5,166 bases of DNA, taken from positions 1-5,166 of IMG/VR virus record IMGVR_UViG_2548876865_000013; one strand, written 5' to 3'. The stretch is from a virus. Its lineage: Duplodnaviria; Heunggongvirae; Uroviricota; Caudoviricetes. The number at the start of each line of letters is the position of its first letter. Position 1 is the stretch's first letter. Below, one piece after another: positions 3,001 through 5,166 of this stretch. Made by a program: the position numbers.

Positions 3001-5166
3001 ACGGTTACCAGTAATTTCTTCATGTATCCTCCGGATAATAAAAAGCCAGCTTAGTGCACTGAGTGCGGATATATTCCTGCGCCCCTTCCAGCTGCTTCTG
3101 CATTGTCATCAACCGTTCTCTGAGGATGAAATAATCCCGTTCAGCGGTGTCTGCCAGTCGGGGGCCGGTTGCATTATCCACGCGGGCGGTGCCGGTGGAT
3201 TCACGCACGGTACCGGAGCAGGTGGCGTTGATCCGCAGGCGCTTACGACCAGCGGCAACATCAGCGCGCAGAGTTTCATTTTCAGCTCTCGCATCGGCTA
3301 ACTCCTTTGTGTATTTTTCATCCAGCGCAGCAACATCACGCTGGCGCTGCTGCATGTCAGTAATGGTTGCGTTTGCCAGCTCCAGCTCGCTGGCTTTTTT
3401 ATCGCGCTGCGCTTTGTAGGTGATGGCATTATCGCGGTAATGGTCTGTTGCCAGCCACAGCGCACCACAGGCCACCAGCAGGACAATAATCACGCCACAC
3501 AGTGCCCGGTTCATATCGTTGTCACCCCACCAGCCCTGCCGAATTCAACGTCATCCATGCCATAGAAAGAAGAAGAGCAATCAGCGTTGCTGAAAATGAA
3601 ATGCAGACAATGACCCAGAGGATTTCCCCCAGCATTATGAGTTTGCGTGACATGATTACCTCTTAATCCCCGTTTACGATTTCAACGCAATGACCAGTTT
3701 TGCCAGCCCATACAGCATCGGAGACACAGCAATACCAACAGCCACCCACTTAATAGCAAAAGCCAGCGCTCTGCTGATGTCATCAGTCACTGTCACCCCA
3801 GCAGCCCCGACGAAGACAACATCACCCAGGCGAGGGACAGAAAAAGAGCAACCAGCATTAGTGAAAATGAAATACCTACAATCACGCACAGGACCTTTGC
3901 CGGCGTTATGAGTTTGTCTGACATAGCTACCCCTTAATTGCCACAATTAACTGGGATACTACCCATAAAAAAGGGATGCTCCAGACCAGCAAAAATTTCC
4001 AGTTTGGTAATTGACTAATCATGAGTCGCAACTCCCTAATCAGTTTGCTAAAATCAATCAAGGCAGCCTCCCATAGCTTACTGCCATAAAAACAAAACCC
4101 CGCTTGCTGCCAACAAACGGGGTTTTTACTTTTATTCACTTACATTTTGCCAGTTCGCAGGATTTCGTGTTATCCGTCCACGTGAGCATATCTCATTTTT
4201 CAGCAAAATATTCTGCTTACCTGTCGATCCCCCAACACGCCAGCGCACTCTCCTGGTCGCGACGGGATACCTGACCGTAACAGTTGTTTGAGCGAATACG
4301 GCAGTCTCTGCCACCGTCCTTAATCCACCAGCGAATCGCCTCACACGCTCCCCTGCGATCACCTGCATTAATTCGTTTATAAAACGTCGACGGAAAACAC
4401 TTACCGGGGCCAATGTTGTAAGGACAGAATGACGCGATCCCCGCTTTCTGGGGTTCCGTCAGTGGCACTTTGATGTTTTTCTCCACCCATGCCAGCGCCT
4501 TATCACGTTCAATGGCGTTAACCTGGTCGCATTTCTCCTTCGACAACTTCATGCCCGGGACGACAGGTTTACTATCCACCAGAATGGCACCGCGACAGAT
4601 GGTCCAGATACCCGCGCCATCACGGTATGCTGTTGTGTGGTTGCCTTCCTTTTCATCCAGAAACTGGTCAAGGATTTCAGGTGCAGAAGCCCCTGCGGCA
4701 ATCAGCGCCAGAACGGCAGCCGACAGGCCGTATCTGATTTTGGTGTTCATGGATATTTATCAGGATTTATCGGTTTCTGAGCCCTGGATATGTTTATCAG
4801 TTCCAGCCTGTTGCCTCAGGCTGCTAACAGGTCAATACAATCATGAGGATTATTTATGGACAATAACACTATTTCTCTACAGGAGTTGCTCGACAGCATT
4901 TCCAGGCTTCGGGAAGACGTGAACACCCTTACCGTCGCCTTCTCATATCTGGCATTCTCAATTCCAAGGGAACAGATGCAATCAACGCTGGCATCAATCC
5001 AGTTTGAATCATGCAATCCCAAATGGTCTCAGGAACAACAAGACTCTTTCAGGCGGCTTGCTGTATTACTGGATGAAAAATATGCTGGTAAAATTACCAT
5101 TTCGGCGGACTCTTCAGAGAACCCGTAATTATTCCCGGTAGTTTTCCTCTGTAGGTTATCAACACA

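Follow-up and report, generated by a model that had tools for sequence, protein, structure and literature searches.

The window (the whole stretch of 5166 nucleotides that was analysed) carries endolysin, spanin and several small genes on its minus strand, along with one open reading frame of opposite orientation. The features that matter here are listed by position.

3020–3514, minus strand: i-spanin Rz (PF03245, E 6.7e-51)
3109–3294, minus strand: o-spanin Rz1 (PF06085, E 5.3e-21), embedded in Rz in another frame
3522–3653, minus strand: 43-aa single-TM ORF, phrog_4906 copy 2, a paralogue of copy 1 (E 1.6e-12)
3793–3924, minus strand: 43-aa single-TM ORF, phrog_4906 copy 1 (E 4.5e-21), with a strongly hydrophobic 18-mer; in a 148-nt direct repeat
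3927–4139, minus strand: small TM ORF, phrog_6632; the profile match is limited to residues 28–69
4094–4126, minus strand: strong intrinsic-terminator-like hairpin downstream of R, with A and T runs at its flanks; looks bidirectional
4217–4750, minus strand: endolysin R, a 177-aa GH24/T4-lysozyme-type muramidase of the predicted SAR (signal-anchor-release) kind
4601–4648, minus strand: codons 35–50 of R, catalytic motif E35-x8-D44-x5-T50, read from the translation
4679–4732, minus strand: codons 7–24 of R, SAR-like segment YGLSAAVLALIAAGASAP, weakly hydrophobic and uncharged, after K4 and R6
4751–4855, no strand assigned: divergent intergenic region of 105 nt, separating the starts of R and of the plus-strand ORF
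4856–5128, plus strand: 90-aa ORF, phrog_2411, with an ATG start; antisense in the late lysis operon, a moron-like insert
5094–5166, minus strand: 3' end of ydfR (DUF1327), its last 23 codons and stop, overlapping the plus-strand ORF by 35 nt

The product of R matched Pfam PF00959 Phage_lysozyme over residues 33–167 in a profile search (E 2.3e-24) and phrog_7, endolysin, in a PHROGs search (E 1.6e-61). It carries the SAR-endolysin motif E-x8-D/C-x5-T as E35-x8-D44-x5-T50, which aligns with E35/D44/T50 of the R21 chains 3HDE and 4ZPU; across 59 homologues E35 and D44 were invariant and T50 nearly so. Eight cysteines were likewise invariant in the homologues, which fits a periplasmic enzyme. R was 94% identical to R of phage 933W, with residues 7–55 (hydrophobic segment included) identical. 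Its identity to K-12 RrrD/R21 was 30%, and here the catalytic triads fell in register. The AF2 model of R (pLDDT 82) matched full-length R21 (3HDE) with TM scores of 0.66/0.73 over 174 columns and truncated R21 (3HDF) with 0.49/0.62 over 140 columns, the full-length structure being the better match; the modelled fold also matched P22 and T4 lysozymes. No experiment on the exact R protein was found in the literature, and the published direct evidence for 933W R consists of its use in a releasin assay (PMC9239132) and a thesis.

A signal- or SAR-like N-terminus had been proposed for this endolysin in the original prediction, and the translation of the 177-aa lysozyme bears this out. K4 and R6 are followed by 18 uncharged residues (Y7–P24), of which 56–61% are Gly, Ala, Ser or Thr (mean Kyte-Doolittle value 1.5), and this segment is less hydrophobic than the TMDs of Rz and the small ORFs. 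In the published definition of SAR N-termini, basic residues precede a stretch of ∼18–20 residues that is uncharged, weakly hydrophobic and rich in Gly/Ala/Ser/Thr (PMC9239132), and the N-terminus of R has this composition. The same architecture recurred in almost all of 77 distinct homologue N-termini, two of which look like mis-called starts. Cysteine is absent from R before C52, so the SAR segment would refold in the manner of R21, without the disulfide isomerisation seen in P1 Lyz. The sequence thus supports R as an exported, membrane-tethered endolysin of the predicted SAR kind.

We regard it as very unlikely that the segment is instead an ordinary cleavable Sec signal peptide, in which case a soluble periplasmic R would be restrained by other means and the holin would act only as depolariser and timer. 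The N-terminus does fall into the classic n-h-c layout (MNTKIR / YGLSAAVLALIAAG / ASA), and A21-S22-A23 is a formal signal-peptidase motif; however, the +1 residue is Pro24, which, given the established specificity of LepB, would block signal peptidase I. As a family-wide argument against cleavage this point is weakened, because the position of the proline moves in homologues (AGAPAS), which vary at the A-x-A site (ASAP, APAS, APAP and ATAP). Retention of the segment is further favored by its conservation, together with the ILDQFL motif that follows it, across Enterobacteriaceae, by the AF2 pLDDT of 94–95 over residues 11–30, and by alignment of the model over ∼174 columns of full-length R21. 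Sequence alone separates SAR from cleavable peptides unreliably; a predicted SAR domain has earlier proved to be a cleavable signal peptide, the precedent being T4 RI (PMC8385771). The closely related 933W R is regarded in the field as a SAR endolysin, and a construct of it labelled "SAR endolysin" has been assayed in that role (PMC9239132).

Upstream of R the window holds only 416 nt (4751–5166). The three minus-strand frames of this interval contained 2, 9 and 16 stops, and no hydrophobic segment was read in any of them, in agreement with the earlier statement that no holin gene lies there. The accompanying description of two frames riddled with stops was accurate as to the stops, but one frame opens with VLITYRGKLPGIITGSLKSPPKW*, the C-terminus of a DUF1327 protein (114 aa in contig L009). 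This is ydfR, the gene between holin and endolysin, annotated "YdfR family protein" in relatives, and its C-terminus at the window end means that the window cuts through the lysis operon. Over so short an interval the absence of a holin is without statistical weight.

Near-identical contigs placed the holin. Two of them, L009 and L014, match window positions 217–5166 with one mismatch (99.98% identity over 4950 nt), and in such contigs the holin gene S occupies the window-equivalent positions 5443–5658, ∼277 nt beyond the window end, and is followed by ydfR. In all eight of the contigs shown that encode an identical endolysin, the order is PF04971 holin (71 aa, class II), DUF1327, antisense ORF and R, and annotated records, of phages as well as of E. 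coli, show this order too. The whole S-to-R block was present in 1027 of 5426 complete E. coli genomes and the window part (4140–5166) in 1031, so that roughly one complete genome in five has the S-ydfR-ORF-R block. Hence the idea of a cassette lacking a holin did not survive, whereas the alternative offered beside it, that a gene outside the window supplies the function, is borne out by this 71-aa P21-family holin past the edge in every close relative examined. Judged from these sequences, the "missing" holin is an artefact of the window edge.

The S protein, part of which reads WAAIGVLGSLLFGLLTYL, shares 99% identity with 933W S and 80% with K-12 EssD, and it matched phrog_20 and phrog_9876 (holin) in addition to PF04971 (a precomputed match). 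It has dual starts (M1 and M4) and two TMDs; TMD1 is weakly hydrophobic and SAR-like, with ∼61% Gly/Ala/Ser/Thr by direct count, and TMD2 provides the best hydrophobic 18-mer. In contrast to S21-71, the longer form has an extension (MYQ) free of lysine, and antiholin regulation may therefore differ. To our knowledge, nanometer-scale holes that depolarise the membrane without passing endolysin are known for S21-68 only. In published work the endolysins of Stx phages count as predicted SAR endolysins of the R21 type and their holins as P21-family pinholins (PMC8136144, PMC10462455), and Stx-phage S belongs to the P21 family according to TCDB (PMC10462455). R is paired genetically, in relatives, with a pinholin-type holin outside the window.

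Extending the view beyond position 5166 in relatives, as the original prediction had suggested for the sequence itself, also revealed the rest of the late operon. In the 99.98%-identical contigs it runs from the Q antiterminator (∼6 kb upstream in relatives) to SASA esterase, DUF1378, DUF826, S, ydfR, the antisense ORF, R, the small TM ORFs, Rz/Rz1 and Nu1/A; Q and the esterase are separated by a DNA methyltransferase gene, and stx genes are absent. The Rz/Rz1 pair has the properties of a two-component spanin. We consider it highly probable (∼0.88) that the locus is a standard pinholin/SAR-endolysin/two-component-spanin cassette, on the minus strand, of a lambdoid, Stx-phage-like, stx-negative Escherichia prophage. 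Following the phage 21 and 933W paradigms, from which the steps are inferred, Sec would export R, and the weakly hydrophobic SAR segment would hold it inactive in the inner membrane. The product of S, from its dual start M1/M4, would accumulate and trigger at a set time, its small holes collapsing the proton-motive force; the SAR segment would then exit the bilayer and, as happens in R21, become refolded into the body of the enzyme. The active muramidase would degrade the wall, with the outer membrane disrupted by Rz/Rz1.

Between R and Rz lie three or four small single-TM ORFs of 43–51 aa with almost no soluble domain. The two phrog_4906 copies share 76% nucleotide identity at a spacing of 271 nt, with 26 of 44 aligned positions (43 residues and the stop) identical; paralogy of the 70-aa and 51-aa small ORFs was rejected for want of BLASTP similarity. 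The hairpin at 4094–4126 consists of a 15-pair stem and a subsequent T run (RNA fold −25 kcal/mol, z −4.97 versus shuffles), and it lies inside ORF 3927–4139 as called mechanically, towards the 5' end of that ORF. Translation of the phrog_6632 ORF probably begins past the hairpin, at a TTG (position 4061) that is preceded by GGGAGG, which would give a 44-aa product. A DicF-like Rfam match at 568–597, the sole match in the whole window (E ≤ 1), reached 20 bits where the gathering score is 48 and was discarded as sub-threshold.

The original prediction had entertained the possibility that these downstream small TM peptides supply the depolarising or releasing function. Holin-independent lysis of this type, in which they would act as depolarisers or as Mu-type releasins for the SAR endolysin, draws on the presence of such ORFs in the cassette and on the existence of a holin-less, releasin-dependent SAR system in phage Mu (PMC9239132). 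We find it scarcely credible here. An intact P21-family holin occurs in all relatives examined, none of the small ORFs had a Pfam hit, and searches of Pfam, NCBIfam and PADLOC with them gave no releasin, holin or DUF2730 match, the PHROGs hits being to unknown-function families only. The small ORFs do not have the features of a Mu-type releasin (DUF2730), whose cytoplasmic domain of ∼70 aa they lack. Moreover, their number differs between phages with identical or near-identical endolysins, and in 933W ant takes their slot. The small TM ORFs are not needed to explain lysis.

The plus-strand ORF that had been described as diverging from the endolysin behind a good SD was recovered at 4856–5128, with GAGGA 6 nt upstream of its ATG. 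It is a full-length match to phrog_2411 (E 1.1e-58), and its 62 homologues (59–99% identity), many of them exactly 90 aa long, were always on the opposite strand between holin (with or without ydfR) and endolysin. Searches of Pfam, NCBIfam and PADLOC returned no match, and nothing was found in the literature on ybl58, WP_000369850 or phrog_2411. The AF2 model comprises four helices (mean pLDDT 68, pTM 0.48), and Foldseek gave no PDB match at E ≤ 0.001, which leaves the fold uninformative. A consensus scan of 4700–4855 yielded no sigma-70 promoter for this ORF, and the single match in 3400–5166 was below chance expectation. By eye, TACAAT at 4836–4841 might pass for a −10 element, yet its only partner is TTGCCT at 19-nt spacing and the transcript would start inside the SD, so this candidate was dropped. 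Conservation of the ∼45 nt immediately upstream of R extends to phages in which a different gene is the neighbor.

Could this ORF be a spurious, functionless shadow of minus-strand features? The missing family annotation, the failure to detect a promoter, and a structure model of moderate confidence that lacks a fold match would all suit that view, which we nevertheless hold to be unlikely. Its substitutions favor the third codon position, with dN/dS of 0.2–0.3, and although these values taken alone cannot set the frame apart from an antisense frame that shares its wobble positions, a comparison of stop codons across homologues settled the matter: the plus frame stays open down to ∼59–70% identity, whereas each antisense frame has stops at varying positions. 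The strong SD at the correct spacing and membership in a defined PHROG family point the same way. On this evidence the 90-aa ORF looks like a genuine conserved gene under purifying selection. The original prediction was to fall if a holin lay immediately beyond the edge and the plus-strand ORF proved not to be expressed; the holin is there in relatives, but the ORF looks genuine and conserved and not like an unexpressed artefact.

This conserved antisense ORF is the only uncharacterised element of the cassette. For YdfR no functional family was found in Pfam, NCBIfam or PADLOC, and no functional study of ydfR, DUF1327, essQ or rrrQ was found in the literature. In PhiR5_1 an unrelated antisense ORF occupies the same slot. 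One speculative and rather improbable proposal is that phrog_2411 is a lysogen-expressed moron modulating lysis, either through its protein or through convergent transcription across ydfR/S, for instance by damping leaky holin and endolysin expression or by tuning when lysis occurs. In the same vein, the tandem small TM ORFs that follow the bidirectional terminator might be accessory effectors at the membrane, of a toxin-like or exclusion-like type.

The pinholin/SAR-endolysin arrangement of Stx-type lambdoid E. coli prophages is already known and documented, and the locus adds little to the understanding of lysis. What it offers is a correction: the holin seems to be missing because of where the window ends, and the locus does not belong among the holin-less or releasin-type systems. 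A minor point of some value is the S-R insertion slot (ydfR/DUF1327 and the antisense 90-aa gene) inside a tightly timed operon.

Among known systems, phage Mu (gp22 with the gp25 releasin, DUF2730) likewise has a SAR endolysin in which basic residues precede a weakly hydrophobic TMD (PMC9239132), whereas the present cassette has a holin and no DUF2730 protein, and its small TM ORFs lack the releasin cytoplasmic domain. The essQ-ydfR-rrrQ-rzpQ/rzoQ region of the cryptic K-12 prophage Qin has the same order of holin, ydfR, lysozyme and spanins, and the N-terminus of RrrQ is nearly identical (MNTKIRYGLSAAVLALIGAGASAP); there, however, ydfR overlaps rrrQ directly, the antisense 90-aa ORF is absent, and the DNA is ∼83% identical over R. 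Phage 21/DLP12, with S21 (EssD) and R21 (RrrD; PDB 3HDE/3HDF/4ZPU), would by analogy represent the same mechanism class. Its 71-aa class II holin is 80% identical and has the M1/M4 dual start, its endolysin shares the positions of E35-D44-T50 as well as an N-terminal segment that is free of Cys and rich in Gly/Ala, and full-length R21 is matched by the predicted fold of R. The endolysins are only ∼30% identical, though, and R differs in its eight invariant cysteines, which R21 lacks, and in the A-S-A-P after its hydrophobic segment, while the longer holin here has no lysine in its three-residue extension. In the S-R-ant-Rz/Rz1 cassette of 933W (Stx2a), S and R are 4 nt apart, whereas here ydfR and the antisense ORF form an accessory insertion of ∼0.69 kb; ant fills the R-Rz spacer that holds small TM ORFs here, and the present prophage has no stx genes and has a DNA methyltransferase between Q and the esterase. 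The endolysins (94%) and holins (99%) of the two are nonetheless closely similar, and Rz/Rz1 and the upstream SASA esterase (NanS-p-like) are common to both.

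The window is a lambdoid prophage late region read on the minus strand, laid out as listed together with the flank beyond its edge. Positions from 5094 to 5658 marked window-equivalent were converted from L009 and L014, two contigs near-identical to the window, and L024 is the same contig as L009.

1045-1593, Nu1 terminase subunit
1977-2162, plus strand, DUF3950 gene
3020-3514, Rz, with Rz1 embedded at 3109-3294
3522-4139, several small hydrophobic ORFs
4217-4750, minus strand, 177-aa phage lysozyme, the endolysin R (PF00959, E 2.3e-24)
105 nt, divergent spacer between R and the plus-strand ORF
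4856-5128, plus strand, 90-aa ORF
window-equivalent 5094-5438, ydfR/DUF1327
window-equivalent 5443-5658, holin, beginning 277 nt past the last window base
L024 3310-8379, upstream late region with Q (PF06323), a 65-aa ORF, an N6/N4 DNA methyltransferase and a SASA/NanS-p-like esterase

A 74-aa ORF (2799-3023, minus strand) that overlaps the Rz stop has a match confined to positions 100-172 of phrog_2571 (profile length 291) and is a "hypothetical protein" in the annotation of relatives; no family match was found for the 53-aa hydrophobic ORF downstream of it (2304-2465, minus strand).

The original prediction of an endolysin lacking an upstream holin inside the window was confirmed, as the three minus-strand frames of 4751-5166 contain 2, 9 and 16 stops and lack any hydrophobic stretch. 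The description of two of these frames as riddled with stops overlooked that one of them opens with VLITYRGKLPGIITGSLKSPPKW followed by a stop, the C-terminus of an upstream gene that the window edge truncates. An exact look-up of the 177-aa endolysin listed it in 137 blocks of the collection, and at all eight of the distinct places shown the order was a 71-aa PF04971 holin, a 114-aa DUF1327 protein, the 90-aa ORF on the opposite strand and the identical endolysin, in agreement with the suggestion that a gene outside the window supplies the releasing function. L009 and L014 differ from window positions 217-5166 by a single mismatch (99.98% identity) and are effectively the same prophage; examination of these contigs past 5166, as had been proposed, located the holin and placed the Q antiterminator ∼6 kb from R. 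Annotation of phage vB_EcoS-783R2 reads holin/antiholin S, YdfR family, hypothetical protein (plus strand) and lysozyme R, and that of E. coli SHP24 and OkiPb01678 reads "class II holin family protein", "YdfR family protein", hypothetical protein and lysozyme. Window block 4140-5166 is present in 1031 of 5426 complete E. coli genomes (at least 80% coverage) and the full holin-to-endolysin block in 1027, so the holin accompanies the 90-aa-ORF/endolysin block essentially always. Judged from these sequences, the "missing holin" is a result of the window ending inside ydfR.

Upstream of the holin, the 10-kb flank of a near-identical contig encodes the Q antiterminator (PF06323), a DNA methyltransferase, a SASA/NanS-p-like esterase, DUF1378 and DUF826, which is the late-region layout of Stx phages without stx. 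The prophage is related to Stx phages but stx-negative, its head module is lambda-like, and the N6/N4 DNA methyltransferase takes the place that stx has in Stx phages.

The holin past the edge shares 99% identity with 933W S, 100% with the S proteins of several Stx phages and 80% with K-12 EssD; a published study assigns S proteins of the 933W type to the P21 holin S family and calls them pinholins (PMC10462455). The longer form of the holin starts M-Y-Q-M (L009 3093-3104), with a lysine-free 3-residue extension, whereas EssD, the S21-like homologue compared here, starts M-K-S-M. The antiholin character of phage 21 S21-71 is due to the extra positive charge of its extension, and antiholin regulation in 933W-type holins may differ. 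A predicted 250-aa protein on two short contigs (P0070) joins PF04971 and PF00959 domains and is 95% identical to the endolysin; it probably reflects misassembly or read-through between neighbouring S and R genes.

The endolysin ORF is genuine, with the signal-like N-terminus that had been noted: K4 and R6 precede 18 uncharged residues, YGLSAAVLALIAAGASAP. This segment is 56-61% Gly/Ala/Ser/Thr and cysteine-free, and its hydrophobicity is clearly below that of the Rz and small-ORF TMDs. C-terminal to it lies the catalytic motif E35-x8-D44-x5-T50, aligned by HMMER with the same residues of the phage 21 endolysin R21 (PDB 3HDE) and DLP12 RrrD (4ZPU). The layout of n-region and weakly hydrophobic segment is kept in almost all of 77 distinct homologue N-termini from Enterobacteriaceae, two of which resemble mis-called starts. 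Eight cysteines (residues 52, 74, 109, 118, 136, 150, 157 and 172) do not vary among 59 homologues, which fits a periplasmic enzyme with disulfide bonds; R21 and RrrD have none of them, and as many as four periplasmic disulfides are suggested for this subfamily. The AF2 model (mean pLDDT 82, pTM 0.81; residues 11-30 at 94-95) has an N-terminal helix interrupted at 19-22, not one long membrane helix, and aligns with full-length R21 over ∼174 columns (TM 0.66/0.73) versus only 140 columns (TM 0.49/0.62) with N-terminally truncated R21.

Proline at +1 disfavours cleavage by signal peptidase I, and Pro24 holds that position after A21-S22-A23, a formal signal-peptidase site; this argument is suggestive only, as the proline moves in homologues (ASAP/APAS/APAP). 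In a precedent, the presumed SAR domain of T4 RI turned out to be a signal peptide that is cleaved off (PMC8385771). R shares 94% identity with 933W R, residues 7-55, including the whole hydrophobic segment, being identical, and the Mu lysis paper lists "pZE12-933W-R ... phage 933W SAR endolysin" and assays this construct among the SAR endolysins that Mu releasin releases (PMC9239132). The sequence and model features support SAR-type behaviour, short of proving that the segment is retained.

By analogy with phage 21 and 933W, Q-dependent late transcription would read S, ydfR, R, the spacer ORFs and Rz/Rz1; Sec would export R, and the SAR segment would tether it in an inactive form. S would build up and then trigger, collapsing the proton-motive force, and the segment would exit the membrane and refold into the enzyme, in the R21 rather than the P1 Lyz manner because it is Cys-free. 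Wall degradation would be followed by spanin disruption of the outer membrane. Gene order, family memberships and the holin past the window edge are the established parts of this scheme; we infer the remainder.

Having the small TM ORFs between R and Rz act as depolarisers or releasins, as originally suggested, is unlikely. Their only matches are PHROGs without an assigned function (phrog_4906 twice, phrog_6632), they almost lack a soluble domain, and Pfam, NCBIfam and PADLOC gave no family for them; without a Pfam match, there is therefore no DUF2730 releasin among them. The R-Rz spacer differs among contigs with identical endolysin, and 933W has ant there. Two 43-aa single-TM paralogues (phrog_4906) are carried by the units of a 148-nt direct repeat (3520-3667 and 3791-3938; 76% identity, spacing 271 nt), and L004, a 96.7%-identical E. 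coli relative, lacks one module (window 3788-4084). Given the intact holin, the best reading of the small TM ORFs is as accessory cargo that occupies a variable slot. A Mu-like holin-less system was rejected for the locus, as a P21-family holin lies past the edge and no DUF2730 releasin was found.

A very stable hairpin at 4094-4126 (-25 kcal/mol, z -5), with an A run on one side and a T run on the other, lies just downstream of the endolysin stop. It resembles an intrinsic terminator within the late operon, apparently a bidirectional one, and Q-modified polymerase would read through it. It sits in the 5' part of a mechanical 70-aa ORF (3927-4139), the true start of which is probably the TTG at 4061 (GGGAGG SD), giving 44 aa. 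A weak promoter-like plus-strand site (3918-3947), below chance expectation, could in principle yield an ∼180-nt RNA antisense to this ORF, ending at the hairpin.

The plus-strand ORF diverging from the endolysin does have the good SD ascribed to it, GAGGA six bases upstream of its ATG. It matches phrog_2411 over its full length, and its 62 homologues (59-99% identity, many exactly 90 aa) come from Escherichia, Shigella and Citrobacter; in every context retrieved it lies antisense, with the holin, with or without ydfR, on one side and the endolysin on the other. In two diverged copies, 26 of 48 and 25 of 39 substitutions fall in third codon positions (dN/dS 0.31 and 0.20, ratios similar to those of the antisense frame sharing wobble positions), and only the plus frame is stop-free in all copies. 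A promoter scan, a structure model and a literature search yielded no promoter, no informative fold and no report for this ORF. Probably a genuine gene of moron-like character, it could conceivably affect lysis and is the one element of the locus that lacks an explanation. One copy (P0061, ybl58; L022 2501-2773) agrees with the others only over 25 residues at its start and ∼13 at its end; between these it is read in another frame, which matches window ORF 5004-5141, and this points to two frameshifts, or sequencing errors, that compensate each other.

A gap of 4 nt, with nothing inserted, separates S from R in 933W, whereas here ydfR and the 90-aa ORF intervene; only ydfR separates them in Qin and some Stx1 phages, and phage PhiR5_1 has an unrelated antisense 86-aa ORF (phrog_2572; L002 6497-6757) in the slot of the 90-aa ORF. 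These differing contents mark the S-R spacer as an insertion hot spot. By every sequence criterion testable, the locus is assigned to, and would work like, the P21/933W-type pinholin/SAR-endolysin/Rz-Rz1 system, with 933W S-R and K-12 Qin essQ-ydfR-rrrQ as its closest relatives.
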